Below, piece by piece: positions 2,148-14,801 of a stretch of DNA of 64,000 nucleotides. Position numbers and translations under genes: made by a program. Numbering within the stretch: the first letter of the stretch is position 1; each line of letters starts with the position of its first letter. The stretch is from positions 1 through 64,000 of the IMG/VR virus record IMGVR_UViG_3300008261_001864. One strand, 5' to 3'. Source of the stretch: a virus. The notes below the pieces were generated by a model. That model was given only the letters and a program-made list of their open reading frames with translations, made no database searches and was not told the DNA's origin.

Positions 2148-2552
2148 CTACGGGGTCGCCATAAACTGCCGTTCCCAGAGTTTCACCTTCGGGCCTCGCC
2201 ACGTCATCGGGTTCCGCACAGGGCTGCCCACCATGAGGCTCGTGCTGACCTTGCCGGTCCGCTCCCCTCGCTGAAAGACAAAGCCTTCGGTCGAGCGATA
2301 CACCACACCGTGACCCCGCTCCTGCAAAGCACGCAGCCCAGCCAGAGGGTCTGCGACGTCGGATCGGAACCGCATGAACTTGGTGGCGTTCACCTCGATG
2401 ATGCCGAGGCTCTCAAGGCCAAAGAAAAGAGTCTTGGCCTTCTTGGCCGCCTCGCAGAACATCCCTGCGATCTGGTGGGGCGTCACCGTCGTCATCATCT
2501 CGACGGCGAAGAAGGTGGTCATCGGGGGCGGCTTGGTGGTCGGTGTCGTCAT
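2148..2552 (-). CDS. Hypothetical protein
   Basis: 134 aa ORF with its start overlapping the thyX stop. Confidence 0.7.
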   Translation of the reverse strand: MTTPTTKPPPMTTFFAVEMMTTVTPHQIAGMFCEAAKKAKTLFFGLESLGIIEVNATKFMRFRSDVADPLAGLRALQERGHGVVYRSTEGFVFQRGERTGKVSTSLMVGSPVRNPMTWRGPKVKLWERQFMATP

Positions 2553-3379
2553 CAGAGGGCCGGTTCGTAGATGGCCTCGTTGGCCTGTAGTTTGCGGAAC
2601 TGCTGCCAGCCCGTGAAGTTGCCGCTGATCTCGGGGGATTCCAACGCTTGGGCAACGTGTTCAAAGGGACTCATGTGGCCGCTCGCCTGCAACCGCTGGC
2701 AGAGGTCGATGTCGGCCTTCGGGTCACGCTTGCCGTCATGGGTCAGGTAGGAGACTCGGGCGCACCGCCCCACGGAGATGAGTCGAATCTGCTCCTCCGT
2801 GTAACCATCGGCTCGAAGCTGATCGGCGTCGTCCGTCAACGGCATATGCCAATGACCCACGGGCACGACGGTAGGGGCATGGGCATCGTAGAGCGCCTTC
2901 ATGAGAACGGCGATCTCACGAATCTCGGGCTGCGCGTCCTTGTGCGCCCGCAGGGCAAAGAAGTTCTTGAACTCGGTGGCCGTCACGATCACGGTCTGCC
3001 ACATGAACGGCTCAAGGAGACGGTTCACCAACTGCTTGTGAACGCCAAGGTCGAGGAGGCGGCGAGCGTTGAGGACCGCATCCAACTTGGCCCCTTCCCA
3101 CAGGCCGTCCGCGATGCGGCGCTCCTTGTCGCTGAGTTCCTCGTCGGCCTGCATCCCCTTCTGGTTCTTCCCCCAATAGGTCGGCACGAACGGATCAGCC
3201 TCCACACGGGCCAGCATCTTCTCGACGGGGATGGCGCGGGACGACGCGGAGTTGCGTGAAAACTGGCGGTGCGTGTTGAACTCGGCCAACACGATGCGAG
3301 GAAACGTCACCTCGAAGGTGGTGAGCCGTTGGCCCGAGGGGGCCATATGGTCAGCGAGAATCTTCGCAGAGTACGCCAC
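2552..3379 (-). CDS. thyX: FAD-dependent thymidylate synthase (phage-type ThyX)
   Basis: EFNTHRQFSRNSASSR motif (variant of RHRx7S), FFALRAHKDAQPEIR, CARVSY, HMSPFEH. Confidence 0.9.
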   Translation of the reverse strand: MAYSAKILADHMAPSGQRLTTFEVTFPRIVLAEFNTHRQFSRNSASSRAIPVEKMLARVEADPFVPTYWGKNQKGMQADEELSDKERRIADGLWEGAKLDAVLNARRLLDLGVHKQLVNRLLEPFMWQTVIVTATEFKNFFALRAHKDAQPEIREIAVLMKALYDAHAPTVVPVGHWHMPLTDDADQLRADGYTEEQIRLISVGRCARVSYLTHDGKRDPKADIDLCQRLQASGHMSPFEHVAQALESPEISGNFTGWQQFRKLQANEAIYEPAL

Positions 3380-3950
3380 GGTCGATCCTTTCGGTTTGGA
3401 GGCGCACCGCTTCTACCACGTCGTCCCATGAGGTCGCACGAGTTAGTCCACGGTCTAGCCTGTTGTAGGGCGCTTCCCATAACAGCCCTATGCCGTCTGG
3501 GTTCTCCTTCGTCCAAGCCATGACGTTCTCGGGCTTGTCGTCCACGAACACGTCGCCCCTGCACAGGTGCTTGGCCTCCGTATAGACAAGGTGCGTATCG
3601 GGGATGCCAACCTGTCGAGACAGCCAGCCTGCTCGGTCGGTGTACCAAAAGGGTGAGTTCCTCATCGGAGCCGTCACCGCGTACACCTCGGCCACCCCTT
3701 GGAGGCGAGACACTCCCTCCGAGACACCCTCGTAGCGGGCGAGCCTGGCCGCTACACCAGGTCTCGCACACTCGTAGAAGAACTCGTGCTTCCACGCTGG
3801 ATCGAAGGTCTGGAACAGGTCCCAATCCGTGAACTGCTCACGGGTGTAGGTCCTGCCGCTCAACTCCTCCATCGTCTGGATGGCGAAGCCAAGGAAGTCG
3901 GCCAGCACCCCATCAACGTCCAGCAACACCCTCGGCCTTCTCTGCGCCAC
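3351..3950 (-). CDS. HAD-family 5'(3')-deoxyribonucleotidase (NT5C-like)
   Basis: LLDVDGVLADF, VTAP, KHL..GDVFVDDKPEN, APYN, SWDDV motifs. Confidence 0.9.
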   Translation of the reverse strand: MAQRRPRVLLDVDGVLADFLGFAIQTMEELSGRTYTREQFTDWDLFQTFDPAWKHEFFYECARPGVAARLARYEGVSEGVSRLQGVAEVYAVTAPMRNSPFWYTDRAGWLSRQVGIPDTHLVYTEAKHLCRGDVFVDDKPENVMAWTKENPDGIGLLWEAPYNRLDRGLTRATSWDDVVEAVRLQTERIDRGVLCEDSR

Positions 3951-4665
3951 GGTAAATCTCCAACTTCTTGAGCCAGTAGATGATCGACATGGGCTGAGTT
4001 CCGAATCGGGCGGCGATCTTATGGGGCGACAGCCCCTCCCCGTACAGGCGAATCACCTCATCGACGTCAACTCGGCCGTGTGTGGGCGCTCCCATGACCT
4101 CGCTGACGAGGTTCCCACAGACCTGTTCTCGGAGGTCGGGGTCCGCATAGACGTAGTTGCGGAGTGTATACATCGAGACGCCACAGACCTCGGCCAACTC
4201 CCGCCATGTCCTCCCCACCGCGAGCCGGATGATCTCATCGTCGGGGGGCTTCTTGTGGGACTTGTCCTTCAAGACCACCCCGTGCTTGTCCGCGATCAGT
4301 TTGACCTCGGCGGGAGTGGTGCCAATCTCGGTGGCGATCTCCTTGGCGGTACGCTCGGGTGACAAAGCCGCCTGTATGCGGGCGTGCCGCTCCTCTCGCT
4401 TCGCATCCGAGAGCCGTGGCAGGTCGGCTCCAGCCTTCTTGCGCCATTGGGAAACCGCCTGCCGCGACACTCCAAGGCGGGCCTGGACCTCATCGGTGGT
4501 CAGTTCGTACAACTTCTCGGTCAGCCAGTAGTGTCGCAACTCGTCGGGATCAGGGTAACGGGCATCCGGCCCCAACCCCCGCACAGCCTCGGCCTTGTTG
4601 GGGAACATCCCGTACCGCACAGGCGCACTCCCCTGCTGAGAGCAGAACAGCTTGAGGCCACTCAT
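3913..4665 (-). CDS. Multi-helix-turn-helix DNA-binding protein
   Basis: About four HTH-like segments: TDEVQARLGVSRQAVSQW, TAKEIATEIGTTPAEV, TWRELAEVCGVSMYTL, SPHKIAARFGTQPMSI. Confidence 0.8.
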   Translation of the reverse strand: MSGLKLFCSQQGSAPVRYGMFPNKAEAVRGLGPDARYPDPDELRHYWLTEKLYELTTDEVQARLGVSRQAVSQWRKKAGADLPRLSDAKREERHARIQAALSPERTAKEIATEIGTTPAEVKLIADKHGVVLKDKSHKKPPDDEIIRLAVGRTWRELAEVCGVSMYTLRNYVYADPDLREQVCGNLVSEVMGAPTHGRVDVDEVIRLYGEGLSPHKIAARFGTQPMSIIYWLKKLEIYRGAEKAEGVAGR

Positions 4666-5090
4666 AGCGTCTCCTTGATCTGGAGGGACAGCCGCTCCAT
4701 CTCCGCGATCAGTTCCCGCTGCCGCTCCATGAGAGCCAACACCTTCTCCTCCTTGGTCGGCTCGGGCGGCTTAGGCGGGGGCGGCGGCTCCACCTTGACC
4801 CACAGGGGAAGCTGCGGCGCTCCAAGGAACAGACCGAGTTCCTCCAGGTAGAACTCGATGATCTCCACGGTCTGGCGTCCGAGATTCTGGATTTTCAGCA
4901 ACTCGAACCTTGACATCTTAGCAAGGTCGGCAAGTGTCTTGATGGCCCGACGGTCAAACACCCCCTGTGCGCGGTTGCCGAACGGCACCACATGAACGGG
5001 CGTCTCCAGCAACTTCTCTCGCGGCAACGCCTTCAAGTGAGCAAATAGAGGCTTGTCCTTGGTGTAAATCTTCATCGCTCTAGCGGCCAT
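4662..5090 (-). CDS. Stand-alone RNA polymerase alpha-subunit C-terminal-domain-like protein
   Basis: NRAQGVFDRRAIKTLADLAKMSRFELLKIQNLGRQTVEIIEFYLEELGLFLG follows the alpha-CTD pattern. Start moved to ATG 5090, which has a GGAGG RBS. Pro-rich linker and C-terminal coiled coil. Confidence 0.82.
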   Translation of the reverse strand: MAARAMKIYTKDKPLFAHLKALPREKLLETPVHVVPFGNRAQGVFDRRAIKTLADLAKMSRFELLKIQNLGRQTVEIIEFYLEELGLFLGAPQLPLWVKVEPPPPPKPPEPTKEEKVLALMERQRELIAEMERLSLQIKETL

Positions 5091-5133
5091 GTGTACCTCC
5101 TGCGCCGCTATCAGAGCGGCAGCATGGGGTAAC

Positions 5134-5162
5134 AGGTAACACAGCGTAAGAGCAACTGTCAA
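5134..5162 (-). promoter_or_regulatory. Sigma70-like promoter upstream of the alpha-CTD gene
   Basis: Perfect TTGACA (5157-5162), 17-18 nt before an imperfect -10 (TTACCT/TACCTG), in an AT-richer gap. Confidence 0.5.
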
Positions 5163-5172
5163 GCGTTGTCGA

Positions 5173-5481
5173 TCAATCTTTTGACAAATCCACACTGGCC
5201 CGCTGGATGGCGGCTTCCAGCGAGGCGGGCAGGGCGTCATCGTCGAGGAAGTCATCGACGTCGAAGGCAGACCGCATGAGGCGTGAGAAGGCGTCATCGG
5301 AGTCCCGCCAGCCGTCGATGAAGTGCCGCAGGGCAGCGGTCACTTGATCCTGCTCCTCTTGCGTGCGGGCACGACGGTACATGGCCTCGAAGCGGGCCAC
5401 CTCGTCGGGTTTCATGTTGGTGGTGAGTCCTCGGAACCGAAGGACGTCGATGAGCAGGTTCTTCCGCTTCCGCTTGTTCAT
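5173..5481 (-). CDS. Hypothetical protein
   Basis: 102 aa ORF directly after a class A motif; basic N-terminus, acidic C-terminal part. Confidence 0.75.
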   Translation of the reverse strand: MNKRKRKNLLIDVLRFRGLTTNMKPDEVARFEAMYRRARTQEEQDQVTAALRHFIDGWRDSDDAFSRLMRSAFDVDDFLDDDALPASLEAAIQRASVDLSKD

Positions 5482-9059: not shown

Positions 9060-9680
9060 TCATACACCAGAACCCTTGAACTTCACTCGCCCGCCAACCG
9101 GGACGACGTTTGTGGCTGGCTCTGGTGCCGCCCACGCATCTCGTGGCGGTGTCTGATCCCCTCTTACACCGGCCAACATCCGGCCCCCTTGAAAAGGTGA
9201 GTTGATAGGGAAAGATTCTGGTCGCACGGCTGGCTCCCTCGCCACAACAGGCTCGACGGGCTGCGTCGGAGGAACCTCGACGGGCGCAGGGGTGACAACA
9301 GGCTCCGCTGCGATAGGCCTGGTCACAACGGGCGGTCGCCGTACCTCTGCGACAGGCTCGGCCCGCACGGGTGCCTCGATGACCGGCGTGGCATCGGGGT
9401 CAACCCACGATCTGATGTCGGGCGGCCTGCTGGCATCGAGGGACAGGAACTTCTTGCCCGCGATGATCTTGAAAAGGGGGTCGGCAGGGTCCATGCGAGG
9501 AGTGTTCTTGAAAAGCCGGTCCTCCCATGTGTTGACCCGCATATCAAACCGACTCTGGCCGAACAGGCTACGAGTACAGTCGGGGTTGATGCACCGCTTG
9601 CACCACCCCTCTTGAAAGGTCGCCAACGGCTCCCCAGCGGTGTTGCACTCGGACAGTTGATCTCGTCGCGGGACCGTCAT
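9060..9680 (-). CDS. Hypothetical protein with Cys cluster and Pro/Val/Ala-rich linker
   Basis: ATG 9680 overlaps the polymerase stop (ATGA); EC...WCKRCINPDC. Confidence 0.75.
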   Translation of the reverse strand: MTVPRRDQLSECNTAGEPLATFQEGWCKRCINPDCTRSLFGQSRFDMRVNTWEDRLFKNTPRMDPADPLFKIIAGKKFLSLDASRPPDIRSWVDPDATPVIEAPVRAEPVAEVRRPPVVTRPIAAEPVVTPAPVEVPPTQPVEPVVAREPAVRPESFPINSPFQGGRMLAGVRGDQTPPRDAWAAPEPATNVVPVGGRVKFKGSGV

Positions 9681-12532
9681 GCACCCCTCTCCTCCCCTAC
9701 CTTGCCGTCCGATAGGTTCTTCTCCAGTAGTTGCTCTGCGAACCGTCCCGCGTTGACCCGTATCTTGAGGTTGGGGTCGATCAGTACGTTGCCAAACCCG
9801 TCGATGAGCCGCAGGTAGTGGCCCGTGTCCACCGTCATCCAACGCCCGATGGCCTCCCTGACCTGTGCGACCGAGAGCGCCGTCGTGGTCTTGAGCCGTA
9901 CCGTGGCGGTCCTCACCTTCTCGGTACCCTGCTGGGCAGGTGCGGAGGGCGGCGGGGGTGCCGTGGGGGCCACCGCCACAGGTGCCGCCGCAGGTGCGGG
10001 TGTTGTCTGGGGGGCGACCTCAACGGCTGGCTCGACCTGCTTGGCTTCGACGGCTACTGCGGTGCCCTGCGGGACATAGGGCAAGAGGGCGGCCGGTACC
10101 TTCTTGTAAACGTACCCGTGAGAGATGAAACCACCCTCGGGAGGCTGCTCGCCTTCCTTGGCCCTGTGGCACCCGAACTCGGCACCCCAAGACTCTCCCA
10201 GCAGCGGGTCCGTCACCAACGGGACCAGCCACTTGGGCGAGTAGGGCGGCCTCGCCATGATGGTGGGCTTTTCCATCTCGCGGGTCAACACGGGGATGAC
10301 CTCGAACACGAGATCATGCCGCACCTCAAAGACCAACTCATCGTGGACGGTCAGGAGCATCCTGACCGCATCCGCTGCGTCCTTGAGCCAGCCTTGGCGG
10401 TACAGTTCCTTGTGGATCAGCACCATGCTGATCTTCATGATGTCGGCACCGCTACCCTGGATCGGGTAGTTCGTCGCATGACGCTCGCCAGACGCCCGTA
10501 GGCTCCGAACGTCCTCCTCGGTCTGGACAATCTTGCCCCATGAGTCCTTCTGGCCCTTCTGGAGGTTGGCGTCGGGAATCGCAATCCATCGCCCGAACGC
10601 CGTCCACACTCCAAGGTCACGCTTGACCTTCTCGTGCTGACCCTTGACCCAGTTGGCGAACGTGGACACGGCCTTGTCGAACGCCTGCTTGCGCCGCTGG
10701 GCCTCCAGCCGGTTGCAGCCGGTCGCCCGCATGATGGAGGCGGGGCCGCCGCCGTACACAAGGGCGAAGTTCGCCACCTTGCCCATCTTGCGTTCGTCCT
10801 TGGTGACCTCCTTCTTGTTGAAGAACGCCCTCGCCGTGATGCTGTGGAGGTCGCCGTCGCCGTTCTGGAACTCCTTGATCCAGACAGGCTCGTTGGAGAG
10901 GTTCGTGACGATACGGAGTTCCTCGGCGGCGTAGTCGCACTTGACCATCGTGTATCCCGGCCGGGCCACGAAACTCGTGCGGACGTCCGAGGTGCCAGGG
11001 ATGCCGTGGATCGGGATGCCGCTGAACCCGTCCTCCGCGTTGCCTGCGGGGGCCGAGAAACGTCCCGTCGCTGCACCCGTCTGTTTGAACGAGAACCGCA
11101 GTTCATCGTTACGGTCAGGGTTCGCGGACAGGCTCTCCAGATAGGTACCCAGCATCTTATCTTCTTCGCGGTACCCGTCCACCCACTCCAGCACCTCGGG
11201 GGCGTTGACGCCCAACTCCTCCCTGATGGCCTTGAGGCTCTCGTAGTCCGTCTTGTACTGCTGGGACTTCTCGTTCAAGGGAGGCTTGGGGTTGATGTTC
11301 AACCCCCGCTCGCCAAAGAGGAACTCGCCAAGTTGCTTGGTGGAGCCAGGCTCGAACGCCTCAAAGCCCTTGGAGGTCGCCAATGCAACGATCTTGTCGC
11401 GGTACTCCTGCCACTTGGCCCTGTGGGCGTTCCGCAGCCCCTCCAGACGGCTCCGATCCACCCTGACCTTGTTACGCTCCATGACGCGGACGACCTGCGT
11501 GACCTGCTTCTCCAGCCGGTAGATGAACTTTCGACCCGTCGGGTCCCTGTCGATGACAGGCAGGAGGTCGGGTCTGGCACACAGGAGCCGCGTACAGATG
11601 GCGTCGGAGCCAGCGTACTTGACGACACCTGGCTCGTCAGGGGAGAGGCTCGGGAAACTGATCTTCCGCGATGTCGGGAACAGTTCCTTGAGCTTTATCA
11701 TCTCGTAGGGCGACCCGTCGGGGGCGCGTAGCAACTGTGCGGCCTTGTCCTTGAGGGACAGGTTGTGGTCGCCCGAGTACAACGTGAAGTAGGCGAGCAT
11801 CCCGTCCTCGAAGGAGTCGGGGTGCCAGAAGTCAATGCCCGTCACAGGGTACAGGAACTCTTGGTCGAACTTGGCGTGCCAGAAGTCGATCACCACCCTC
11901 GGGGGCGTCTCGAAGTCCTTGAAGGCCAGCGGGTCTGTCTGGCCGGGCTTGGGGGTCGGCTGCGCTGCCCGACAGAGCCGTGTGATGGCGGCCTCGACAC
12001 GCTCGACGGGTTTCACATTGAGGTCAGGGCCACCGTCCAGCGCCTTGTGTCGGACGGGGATGTAGTAACCCGTCTTGGCCTCACCGACCGCGATACAGAA
12101 GCCGACGATCTGATGGTGGGTGCGGGGCCGTCCCTGTGCGTCCCACTCGATGCGGTTGTCCAGCCCTTCCGTCTCAAGGTCCAGCGAACACTTGCCGTTC
12201 GCCAACGCCTCATCGACGATACGCTCAACCTCGTCCGAGGTACGCACCAGCACGAACTCGTGGTACTTCATCCACGGCTTCGTGATGTCGGGCACCTCCC
12301 GCTCGGCCTTGATGCCGGTGGCACTCAGGAACGATTCGAGATCGTCGCCCTCGTCCTCATCCACCTTGAAAAGGCTGGTCTGTTTCGTTGTCTCGGAGGC
12401 GACAGCTTCCCGCAACTCGGACACGAGGTCCAAGTCATCGGGTTCCTCGGCGGGTGGGGTGGGTACCTTCGCGGGTGCGGCTTCCTCGTCCAACAGGGCT
12501 GCGATGTCATCCAAATCGTCGATTTCAGTCAT
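9677..12532 (-). CDS. polA: Family A DNA polymerase with 3'-5' exonuclease domain and acidic N-terminal extension
   Basis: ExoI LDLETEGL, ExoII HAKFD, ExoIII YAGSD, ATGRFS, motif A DYAAEELR, motif B RKMGKVANFALVYG, NYPIQGSGAD, motif C TVHDEL. Start ATG 12532 with GGAGGAG RBS. Confidence 0.96.
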   Translation of the reverse strand: MTEIDDLDDIAALLDEEAAPAKVPTPPAEEPDDLDLVSELREAVASETTKQTSLFKVDEDEGDDLESFLSATGIKAEREVPDITKPWMKYHEFVLVRTSDEVERIVDEALANGKCSLDLETEGLDNRIEWDAQGRPRTHHQIVGFCIAVGEAKTGYYIPVRHKALDGGPDLNVKPVERVEAAITRLCRAAQPTPKPGQTDPLAFKDFETPPRVVIDFWHAKFDQEFLYPVTGIDFWHPDSFEDGMLAYFTLYSGDHNLSLKDKAAQLLRAPDGSPYEMIKLKELFPTSRKISFPSLSPDEPGVVKYAGSDAICTRLLCARPDLLPVIDRDPTGRKFIYRLEKQVTQVVRVMERNKVRVDRSRLEGLRNAHRAKWQEYRDKIVALATSKGFEAFEPGSTKQLGEFLFGERGLNINPKPPLNEKSQQYKTDYESLKAIREELGVNAPEVLEWVDGYREEDKMLGTYLESLSANPDRNDELRFSFKQTGAATGRFSAPAGNAEDGFSGIPIHGIPGTSDVRTSFVARPGYTMVKCDYAAEELRIVTNLSNEPVWIKEFQNGDGDLHSITARAFFNKKEVTKDERKMGKVANFALVYGGGPASIMRATGCNRLEAQRRKQAFDKAVSTFANWVKGQHEKVKRDLGVWTAFGRWIAIPDANLQKGQKDSWGKIVQTEEDVRSLRASGERHATNYPIQGSGADIMKISMVLIHKELYRQGWLKDAADAVRMLLTVHDELVFEVRHDLVFEVIPVLTREMEKPTIMARPPYSPKWLVPLVTDPLLGESWGAEFGCHRAKEGEQPPEGGFISHGYVYKKVPAALLPYVPQGTAVAVEAKQVEPAVEVAPQTTPAPAAAPVAVAPTAPPPPSAPAQQGTEKVRTATVRLKTTTALSVAQVREAIGRWMTVDTGHYLRLIDGFGNVLIDPNLKIRVNAGRFAEQLLEKNLSDGKVGEERGA

Positions 12533-12534
12533 GG

Positions 12535-12951
12535 TTACGGCTCCTCCACGATCACCACATACACCGACTCCCGCCACAGCCGGATGAGTTCCTGCCCGAT
12601 TTCTGGAGGCACCCCGACGGGTTCAAAACAGGTAGGCATCTTGGGGGCTTTCGGGATGCAGTCGGCCTTACGGTAGAAAATGCACTTGCCCGACAACGCG
12701 CATTGGCGCGAGTCGGGCGACAGTCGGTGCAGGATGAGTTGTGGGGATGGCCCCAGAGCCTTTACGAGCGGACTCGTCCAGCCATGCAGCGCGTGATCGA
12801 CCATCTCCTTGGTGGTGACCAGCAGGTACTCGGCGTAGCGGCTGGTCCTCAGAGGCTCCCAAGCGGCTTCCCAGACGCCAGCCTTGCTGCGAACCAGCAT
12901 GAGGTGGAGGTCGCCCATCTCACGGGTCTGGAGTTTGATCTGTCGAGCCAT
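12535..12951 (-). CDS. Hypothetical Cys-containing protein
   Basis: 138 aa; four spaced Cys; translationally coupled to its neighbours. Confidence 0.75.
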   Translation of the reverse strand: MARQIKLQTREMGDLHLMLVRSKAGVWEAAWEPLRTSRYAEYLLVTTKEMVDHALHGWTSPLVKALGPSPQLILHRLSPDSRQCALSGKCIFYRKADCIPKAPKMPTCFEPVGVPPEIGQELIRLWRESVYVVIVEEP

Positions 12952-13880
12952 CAGTCTTGCTCGTCGTCGTCGCCGTAGCCCTCCTCAACGACGGGAGCGG
13001 GTCCAACTCGACCCTGCTGACGGTCAGCCAGCACCATCCCGAAGTTGTTGACCCCCTGCGGGATCACGAGGCCCGCCTTGCGGCGCAGCACGTTGGTACG
13101 AAAGGGGCGGTAGTCCACATGGTGGTGCCACCGTCGGAACTTCCAGACCACCTCCGCAACGTCGGGGTGCATGGCGGCGAGCATCCTGCTCTTGTTGAGC
13201 GTACCCTCGATCTCGTAGAACTCTCGGGTGTTGCCGCCCGTCATCCGCTGGGTCGCCACCTTCCCACACAGGAAGGCGTTGAACTGCACGGTCACCCACT
13301 TGTCCTTCAAAACCCGCAGGGACAGGTCGGTGTCCTCGTTGTAGCGCCCCCGCCAACGGTACTGGATGTCGTTGCGGATCAGTAGGCACGAGTAGATACG
13401 GGTGTTCAGCACATAGGGGGGCAGAGCATCGACGGCCTTGGCGAACCCTTGGTAGTTGAAGCCCGCGACCGCGACATTCTCGTACCGTTCCACAAAGTCC
13501 TCGGCGGCTCGAAAGACGCTGCCCGTCTCACAGACGATGCGGGTGTTGCGGTTCATCCTGTAGAAATGCTCGAAGTTGTCGTCCATCACCCAATGCCACG
13601 CGGCCCCCTCCGAGATCGCATGATCCCAAGCGAAGTTGCGTGCGGGGCCTGGCCCCTTGCTCTTGGTGGTCCCAAGATCATCGAAGGCGTCGTACTCCTC
13701 GATGTACCGTGGGGGTAGGATGAGTAGCTTGTCGGCTCCGACCTCGGCGGCGTACAGGTCGAACTCGGGTTCCTCGACGATGATGCGGTACGGGGTCCGC
13801 ATCCGATCCAGCGCCTTGCTGGTCAGCCGCGACTCCCATCGGCCCTTCGACACCACATAGATGGGGTGGCTAGGATTCAT
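12951..13880 (-). CDS. GT-A-fold DNA-base glycosyltransferase (TET/JBP-associated, GREB1/JGT-like)
   Basis: IYVVSKGR, GPARNFAWDHA, WVMDDN, RIYSCLL, WRGRYNEDTDLSLRVL, GGN motifs. Start moved to ATG 13880. Confidence 0.82.
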   Translation of the reverse strand: MNPSHPIYVVSKGRWESRLTSKALDRMRTPYRIIVEEPEFDLYAAEVGADKLLILPPRYIEEYDAFDDLGTTKSKGPGPARNFAWDHAISEGAAWHWVMDDNFEHFYRMNRNTRIVCETGSVFRAAEDFVERYENVAVAGFNYQGFAKAVDALPPYVLNTRIYSCLLIRNDIQYRWRGRYNEDTDLSLRVLKDKWVTVQFNAFLCGKVATQRMTGGNTREFYEIEGTLNKSRMLAAMHPDVAEVVWKFRRWHHHVDYRPFRTNVLRRKAGLVIPQGVNNFGMVLADRQQGRVGPAPVVEEGYGDDDEQD

Positions 13881-14181
13881 CGACGTACCGCTTGTCGGTG
13901 CCAGGCCCACCCCAATGAGACTTGTAGGGATGCCAGATGCTCTTGGTCTTGGCGTTCAACTTCTGGCCGATGCGGGCCGCGAAGTCGTCGAGGTCCTCCT
14001 GCGAGTTGAAGCGGACCACGATGGTCGCATAGGCCACCTGCTTGTCCTGCACGAACTCGGGCATATTCTGCCACTCACGCCGCCACACAGGCTCGCCCTC
14101 GGGGTCACCAAGGCCCGTGGCCTCCAAAAACGAGTCAATGTCGTCGCCGTCGTCATCTTCCCAACGCCTGTCCTGACTCAT
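13870..14181 (-). CDS. Small acidic partner of the glycosyltransferase
   Basis: EWQNMPEFVQ...IVVRF..QEDLDDFA..IGQ....KTKSIWHP pattern, which I recall from phage genes upstream of this glycosyltransferase family; overlaps the GT start. Confidence 0.7.
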   Translation of the reverse strand: MSQDRRWEDDDGDDIDSFLEATGLGDPEGEPVWRREWQNMPEFVQDKQVAYATIVVRFNSQEDLDDFAARIGQKLNAKTKSIWHPYKSHWGGPGTDKRYVDES

Positions 14182-14801
14182 CGCTGCCTCTCCTTGGCCC
14201 CTATCTTGTCGAGGACCTGCCGCATCACCACGACAGCCTCGGCGTTCGTCTGCTTGCCGTTCGTGAGCCGCCAGCGGAGCCGATCCAGCACGCTGCCGAC
14301 CCGCAGGTATCCGTCCATCGTGAAGCTGGGTTTAGCGGCACGCAGCCGCCTCTCACAGACACCCAACAACTGCTCGGCCTCCGTCGAGATAGGACCTTCC
14401 TCGAAGGTCACAACCTCTCGGGGCAACTCGGGGGTCGGTAACCCGAAGGCCCGCTCCATGAGCGCCAGTAGCCGTGTGAAGGGAACGTCGAGTTGCTCGA
14501 ACTTCTTGAACAGGGCGATGCAGTCCCACTTCTCCTGACAGACAAAGCACCACACGCCCGCTGGCTTGCCATCCGTCGCCGGATAGTACCTGGTGGACGG
14601 CTTGTTGTCCTTGCCGTGGAAGGGGCACGAGAACTGCTCGGGCTTGTGGCCGTTGTAGCGTAGGGCCGACCCGTAACGGGCCAACACGTCCCCGACCTCT
14701 ACCCTGTCCCGCAAGGTGGCAACCCGCTGCCGCACCCATTGACGGGCGGCCTCGGACTGCCGTGCCTCCTGTGTCGCTTCGGCGTGGAAGTCCCTTGCCA
14801 C
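14178..14801 (-). CDS. Stand-alone primase-type CHC2 zinc-finger protein
   Basis: FSCPFHGKDNKPS...WCFVC...DCIALF; no TOPRIM motifs follow. Confidence 0.85.
   Translation of the reverse strand: MARDFHAEATQEARQSEAARQWVRQRVATLRDRVEVGDVLARYGSALRYNGHKPEQFSCPFHGKDNKPSTRYYPATDGKPAGVWCFVCQEKWDCIALFKKFEQLDVPFTRLLALMERAFGLPTPELPREVVTFEEGPISTEAEQLLGVCERRLRAAKPSFTMDGYLRVGSVLDRLRWRLTNGKQTNAEAVVVMRQVLDKIGAKERQR

Follow-up and report, generated by a model that had tools for sequence, protein, structure and literature searches.

IMG/VR virus record IMGVR_UViG_3300008261_001864 raises the question of why a phage DNA polymerase and a small protein that partners a glycosyltransferase should carry the same kind of acidic peptide near their N-termini. 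We analysed positions 1 to 64,000 of this record, hereafter referred to as the window, in which the two proteins are a 951-residue family A DNA polymerase (PolA; 9677..12532, minus strand; Pfam DNA_pol_A, 7e-70) and a 103-residue protein (13870..14181, minus strand), here called the helper, whose gene overlaps that of a TAGT-family glycosyltransferase. Based on sequence comparisons, we see an even chance that the shared peptide is a docking tag, that is, that the TAGT adaptor took on the address tag of the resident polymerase, with a sliding clamp as the favoured dock.

A peptide common to the polymerase and the TAGT helper

The polymerase copy, DEDEGDDLESFLSATGI, is encoded at 12311..12361 on the minus strand and comprises PolA residues 58-74, counting from ATG 12532, and the helper copy, EDDDGDDIDSFLEATGL, is encoded at 14110..14160 on the same strand and comprises helper residues 8-24. 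Peptides and positions are exactly those quoted in the original prediction, the strand being minus; translations of the plus strand at the two sites are unrelated to the peptides. In a six-frame translation of the whole 99,443-bp record, SFLxATG occurs only twice, at these two sites. The peptides are identical at 10/17 residues and their coding stretches at 36/51 nucleotides, different codons are used at four of the ten residues common to both, and no DNA similarity was found in the flanks of the two stretches. The codon differences and the dissimilar flanks place the likeness at the level of the protein, as had been claimed from a first reading of the sequence, and they rule out a recent DNA duplication of the motif. 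A scoring matrix of 20 columns was derived from 32 polymerase orthologs, with both window copies excluded. When applied to the six-frame translation of the whole record, this matrix gave 40.6 bits for PolA, 29.4 bits for the helper and 12.5 bits for the next best site, and the maximum in 20 shuffled six-frame proteomes was 14.9 bits. The match between polymerase and helper is not due to chance; it is real and strong. It also reaches beyond the motif first described, taking in an aromatic position ahead of the acidic run, which is W7 in the helper and F, Y or L in many polymerases. The consensus is an aromatic residue, an acidic run and DDGDD-[P/L]-x-x-F-[L/M]-x-x-x-G-[I/L/M].

The open reading frame of PolA extends to GTG 12577, and ATG 12532 is the likeliest start because a database copy of the protein (P0121) begins there. 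Its orthologs, taken from nine database polymerases and 40 IMG/VR loci, show 43-81% identity, and the motif scores at least 15 bits in 35/43 of their distinct N-terminal tails; since these tails fed the matrix, the figure describes conservation and is no independent test. The motif keeps a fixed distance of about 17 residues to the invariant PWM at which the folded core starts; elsewhere, the tails differ in both length and sequence. Judged from these alignments, the peptide is ancestral to the polymerase tail of this giant-phage lineage. A distal acidic-hydrophobic repeat, DDLDDIAALLDEE, is found at the extreme N-terminus of PolA (12482..12520, minus strand), and a similar, looser acidic peptide, DDLxxFLxxL, stands at the start of most ortholog polymerases; a second matrix match of at least 8 bits is present in 9/43 ortholog tails. 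Just upstream of the PolA motif, we also read a canonical clamp-binding-like pentapeptide, QTSLF (12368..12382, minus strand), which is the sole fit to the canonical clamp-binding pattern in the area of the motif and is not conserved, with a counterpart in one other ortholog only (P0123, KSLF).

An AlphaFold2 model of PolA, built with a 27-sequence alignment, has a mean predicted local distance difference test (pLDDT) score of 80.7. Residues 1-64 score below 50, the motif forms a short helix at residues 65-72 with a pLDDT of 50-61, and the core scores above 90 from about residue 80. A tail of such low scores with a short unpacked helix argues against a helix that is packed on the enzyme. According to the model, the PolA motif shows the features commonly seen in docking peptides of flexible tails, and, as is asked of a short linear motif, it lies in a disordered region and is conserved amid variable flanks. 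PolA carries in addition an extra C-terminal domain (residues 875-945, pLDDT of about 87; within 9677-10100, minus strand, residues ~824-951), which sits on a disordered proline-rich linker and is conserved in orthologs.

The TAGT helper and its N-terminal tails

By profile comparison, the TAGT-family glycosyltransferase (12951..13910, minus strand; phrog_842) clearly belongs to Pfam PF20691, which it matches at 2.9e-47 and with 161.7 bits (cut-off 27.5) over profile positions 2-205 of 205. It starts at GTG 13910 or ATG 13880, either of which overlaps the helper gene. The helper itself consists of the N-terminal docking-type peptide and a core of about 70 residues (W33 to end), to which conservation in its family is confined. 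Homologs of the helper numbered 413 in a word-index search and 2,228 in a profile search (E up to 0.001); 18 columns are invariant across 29 sequences, and the core signature W..EW..MPEFVQ ... KTKSIWHP is present in the window protein. TAGT is encoded directly downstream of the helper in 79/80 viral loci, and the two are fused in Aeromonas phage phiAS5 ORF0218 and in P0251, P0270, P0160 and P0248. In metagenomic fusions, the helper either precedes or follows TAGT, and in one case its fusion partner is another glycosyltransferase. The adjacency and the fusions bear out the idea that this small protein is a partner of TAGT. When modelled alone, the helper has a mean pLDDT of 65.7, which is too low for a fold search, with the motif helical at residues 15-21; such a low score would fit a domain that needs its partner. 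A literature search returned no description of the helper family or of its N-terminal tails. Two long matches to the family contain LAGLIDADG domains, and there was no ParB fusion among the ten long matches scanned.

The N-termini of the helpers fall into more than one type. Among 108 distinct N-termini, PhiF[DEGNQS] is present in 63 (mean of 11 and maximum of 20 after shuffling) and QxxPhiF in 11 (0.5 expected), as in the tails QTTLFDE, QQTLFGEE and QVALFEG. In sequence, the QxxLF tails are akin to beta-clamp-binding motifs. The acidic polymerase-type peptide is found in four helpers, P0001, P0002, P0005 and P0131, which are diverged, with 57-67% identity or membership in separate 50% clusters. 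The original prediction had made its case depend on conservation of the motif in the orthologs of both proteins, and this is what we found (35/43 polymerase tails; four helpers). In a tree of the core domain, the acidic P0001 and P0002 fall together with two LF-type helpers, P0003 and P0004 (support 96/90), and P0005 and P0131 are placed apart from the P0001/P0002 group. From these positions in a tree that is short and mostly weakly supported, the tail type changed at least twice relative to the core. Some tails look intermediate, such as LELFGATGL in P0180, LFDALGI in P0204 and LFSFLDS in P0003. One complete phage of 172 kb combines a QTTLF helper with a canonical beta clamp, and the small phages with LF-type helpers have no clamp of their own. 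The LF peptide is absent from the N-terminus of the phiAS5 fused protein, and a metagenome scan for close motif-bearing helpers returned none. In two other loci, an N6/N4 DNA methylase (L049:8718-9941 and L046:2642-3865, both plus strand) has the C-terminus NNLFEEE, and the helper immediately downstream of it opens with NNLFEEEE, which fits a second case of two DNA-modifying proteins with a common terminal tag.

All genes of the region are located on the minus strand, in the order SNF2 helicase, 295-residue protein, DnaB helicase, CHC2 zinc-ribbon protein, helper, TAGT, 138-residue protein, PolA, zinc-finger/proline-rich protein, two small genes and a Ycf46-type AAA+ ATPase. The upstream border of the helper and TAGT genes is the gene for the CHC2 protein (14178..14801, minus strand), whose stop codon is overlapped by the helper ATG. 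Their downstream border is the gene for the 138-residue protein (12535..12951, minus strand), a secondary candidate dock with four invariant cysteines, which is always encoded immediately upstream of PolA and for which no family, PDB or Atlas match was found. The replication module is syntenic in 40/40 related loci, in all of which the CHC2 gene abuts the gene for the 138-residue protein with no cassette between them; TAGT was not found in five relatives, nor the helper in 27 further relatives. The existence of syntenic relatives without these genes indicates that a two-gene cassette was inserted into the replication operon of this phage, at a distance of 1.3 kb from the polymerase start and in such a way that start and stop codons overlap at each junction. 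The relatives, with genomes of 398-529 kb, are complete phages that have terminal repeats. The record is 21% complete according to CheckV, which means that the absence of a gene from it says little, and the full genome of the phage is probably about 470 kb; a megablast search against known phages gave no match.

Candidate docks and alternative explanations

Starting from the direct results, namely that the motif is the same in two proteins and is conserved, that the helper partners TAGT and that its tails are exchangeable, we infer binding, the identity of a dock and coupling to replication along the following lines. The polymerase tail would carry the docking peptide of the lineage, made up of an aromatic residue, an acidic run and a capped helix. 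The helper would act as an adaptor, whose conserved core associates with TAGT and whose N-terminal tail serves as an exchangeable address tag, which in most phages would be a clamp-binding-like QxxLF[D/E]. This phage acquired its TAGT cassette inside the replication operon, and here the tag would be the resident polymerase's own peptide. The adaptor would occupy the same replisome site as the tail of the polymerase, and TAGT would in this way reach newly made DNA. The likeliest site would be the divergent beta-type sliding clamp of the lineage. The presence of a clamp-binding-like peptide at helper N-termini in other phages fits such a role in replisome tethering.

Profiles of the beta-clamp N-terminal domain, gp45 and single-strand-binding protein gave no match in the record itself and four relatives. 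The profile of the beta-clamp C-terminal domain gave a weak match, through which we found a conserved protein of 400-445 residues. This protein matches phrog_947 (polymerase processivity factor) over its full length at 4e-10, and its profile matches the solved beta clamps 1vpk (2e-4) and 8dt6 (0.004). This putative clamp is present in 5/5 and 17/20 relatives (22 of 25), and the three relatives without it are fragments that are 23-44% complete. A second weak clamp match, in L197, was spurious. The gene is located at L201:907-2229 (minus strand) and L196:1345-2586 (minus strand), in L198, L199 and L200, and at 17 more places. Searches with the canonical Pfam beta-clamp N-domain miss this protein, and its neighbour in L198, L199 and L201, the three relatives whose flanking frames were listed, is an open reading frame with a C-terminal cysteine cluster, which to the eye looks Cas4/RecB-like.

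In a mirror-tree (Mantel) test over 20 genomes, the distances between motifs were compared with the distances for ten proteins, and partial correlations were calculated with the polymerase-core distance removed. The clamp showed the best co-variation with the motif (rho 0.51, partial 0.34, p = 0.01), the 138-residue protein (partial 0.29, p = 0.015) and the AAA+ ATPase (partial 0.25, p = 0.03) came next, and the values for DnaB, CHC2 and SNF2 were near zero. In a mirror-tree test, proteins that evolve quickly may retain more of the phylogenetic signal, and as a pointer to the clamp as dock the co-variation is suggestive only. Docking as originally proposed gains from the conservation of the motif, the predicted disordered tail and the TAGT partnership, but two of the docks named for it, DnaB helicase and the CHC2 protein, do not co-vary with the motif; most co-variation is shown by the phage beta-type clamp, which was out of sight in the first reading.

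Several observations weigh against docking on the clamp. The clamp gene is absent from this 21% fragment, and we take it to be present in the phage from its occurrence in relatives. The p-values for co-variation fail correction for nine tests, the relatedness of the genomes inflates tests of this kind, and the 138-residue protein co-varies nearly as well as the clamp. DLESFL and DIDSFL do not fit the canonical clamp-binding pattern (Q at position 1, L-F at positions 4-5), as neither contains Q and the residue at position 4 is S in both. Matrix scans found no further motif carriers in the 40 related loci or in the complete 529-kb relative, in which the motif is present in the polymerase only; with the polymerase as its only carrier in relatives, the putative dock would have no other visible clients. 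Finally, in T4 the share of alpha-glucosylation was found to depend on the expression level and not on clamp binding (PMC13216743).

It is possible, if unlikely, that the tag docks on some other protein of the replisome, mainly the 138-residue protein, or else the protein encoded at 9060-9680, the AAA+ ATPase of Ycf46 type or the beta clamp of the host. The partial Mantel values of the 138-residue and AAA+ proteins agree with this, as does the finding that in 40/40 related loci the PolA gene lies between those of the 138-residue protein and the zinc-finger protein and overlaps both at the start and stop codons, and the clamp-less small phages with LF-type helpers imply that host proteins can serve as docks. 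However, the highest co-variation belongs to the clamp, the tails of the helper family resemble QxxLF and in this way point to clamps, and the other candidates have no known peptide-binding role and no family match. We think it improbable that the motif acts within the polymerase, as a regulatory or self-associating helix on the body or the C-terminal domain, with the helper copy binding the polymerase as a tether or competitor. Such a role would suit a motif that lies, at invariant spacing, only about eight residues ahead of the folded core of an enzyme with an extra conserved C-terminal domain on a disordered linker, and also the TAGT-less relatives, in which the polymerase is the only motif carrier; but AlphaFold2 leaves the helix unpacked (pLDDT of 50-61 versus more than 90 in the core), and the looser distal copies are far from the core.

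We are more doubtful still that the peptide directs proteins to a place in the cell or virion, such as a replication compartment or, by packaging, the capsid, rather than serving as a tag for the replisome. Some phages of this size are known to compartmentalise replication, the relatives are phages of 400-530 kb, and the peptide is N-terminal in both proteins. Against this stand the two carriers in 99 kb and the single one in the complete 529-kb relative, which are too few for a sorting signal, and the alternative tail of the helper family, which looks clamp-binding and not sorting-like. A functionless resemblance, arising from convergent acidic low-complexity sequence or as a neutral recombination remnant of the cassette insertion, is very improbable, for although both regions are acidic and disordered, so that short similarities arise easily, and the insertion site of the cassette is only 1.3 kb away from where the polymerase starts, the helper scores 29.4 bits against a shuffle maximum of 14.9, the peptide is kept in four diverged helpers, and the synonymous differences and the flanks without DNA similarity speak against a recent copy.

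Docking of this kind would have wider implications. As a tentative generalisation, which we judge somewhat more likely to be wrong than right, the peptide would be a so far unrecognised, lineage-specific docking motif for a divergent clamp or replisome hub, the helper would be a plug-and-play tether, and a single adaptor family would wire sugar hypermodification to replication across thousands of phages. Hypermodification of phage DNA blocks restriction enzymes and CRISPR, and to our knowledge it is poorly understood how the modifying enzymes find fresh DNA in time. If the proposal is correct, TAGT enzymes reach the replication machinery with the help of a widespread adaptor of 70 residues and its exchangeable address peptide, and this phage shows the exchange of the tag directly, as the tag is that of its own polymerase. 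This would provide a simple rule by which replisome contacts can be predicted from sequence, as well as a new class of peptide for the divergent clamp of phages of 400-530 kb, and the peptide could be used as bait to find the dock.

Neighbouring genes and known systems

The protein encoded downstream of PolA (9060-9680, minus strand) starts on the PolA stop codon. Four cysteines are invariant in its N-terminal domain, after which come a long linker rich in proline and a conserved C-terminal tail that closes with VVKxGAxIRLGG; we liken its layout to that of a single-strand-binding protein and its ending to ubiquitin. Long forms of three replication proteins were noted in relatives, namely of PolA in L110, L111, L113-L115 and L120, of DnaB in L092, L093, L110, L111 and L115, and of SNF2 in L092, L100, L101 and L110, and their 400-1,000 extra residues are the pattern expected of intein insertions. 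Further along the window, a ThyX-like gene is present at 2552-3379 on the minus strand (Pfam Thy1, 1e-16, partial). One might speculate that the encoded enzyme could be the source of the hydroxymethyl base for TAGT; it is the only candidate base source seen, and no TET/JBP gene is in view in this fragment. Four genes, at 2552-3379, 2148-2552, 3913-4665 and 4662-5297, have no counterpart in the complete TAGT-less relative G001. They code for the ThyX-like enzyme, a 134-residue protein, a multi-helix-turn-helix protein and a stand-alone RNA polymerase alpha C-terminal domain, and the neighbouring ClpX, CN-hydrolase, NT5C and AAA+ genes have counterparts in G001.

With regard to known systems, Sommer et al. 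reportedly described in 2004 that the T4 alpha-glucosyltransferase is bound to the gp45 sliding clamp. The binding of this enzyme to gp45 has since been re-tested by pull-down (PMC13216743), and the statement in the original prediction that no description of such coupling was known can therefore not be upheld. A link between a DNA glycosyltransferase of a phage and the replication clamp is thus already known, and the T4 enzyme resembles the case proposed here in this link, which was likewise proposed to couple sugar addition with replication. The two differ in that the T4 enzyme belongs to family PF11440, whereas the window enzyme is a TAGT of PF20691, a family that includes the T2/T6 beta-glucosyl-HMC-alpha-glucosyltransferase (HMC, hydroxymethylcytosine; PMC13216743). 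In addition, the T4 system has no separate adaptor and no peptide in common with the N-terminus of a polymerase.

A second comparison is with the clamp-binding motifs themselves, that is, QL[S/D]LF or QLxLxL of beta-clamp clients and the C-terminal tails of T4/RB69 gp43. Like the peptide described here, these are short peptides in flexible tails that are common to the polymerase and other DNA enzymes, where they compete for one pocket, and most TAGT helpers have a QxxLF-like N-terminus. In contrast, the window peptide is without Q and the L-F order and extends over about 20 residues; its acidic run is obligatory, its helix is capped by G, and in the polymerase it is found in the N-terminal tail.

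In its working, the closest analogue is found in yeast, where CIP-box peptides bind the Ctf4 trimer in the replisome (PMC4980431). This system is eukaryotic and has no sequence homology to the one proposed here, and its hub is known, whereas here the hub is only a candidate. Nevertheless, in both cases an N-terminal peptide of a polymerase or polymerase subunit is also found on unrelated proteins, which in yeast are recruited to one hub. What is new in this window is a peptide of non-canonical type that originates in the polymerase of a giant phage, together with evidence of a helper tail that was swapped to match the phage.

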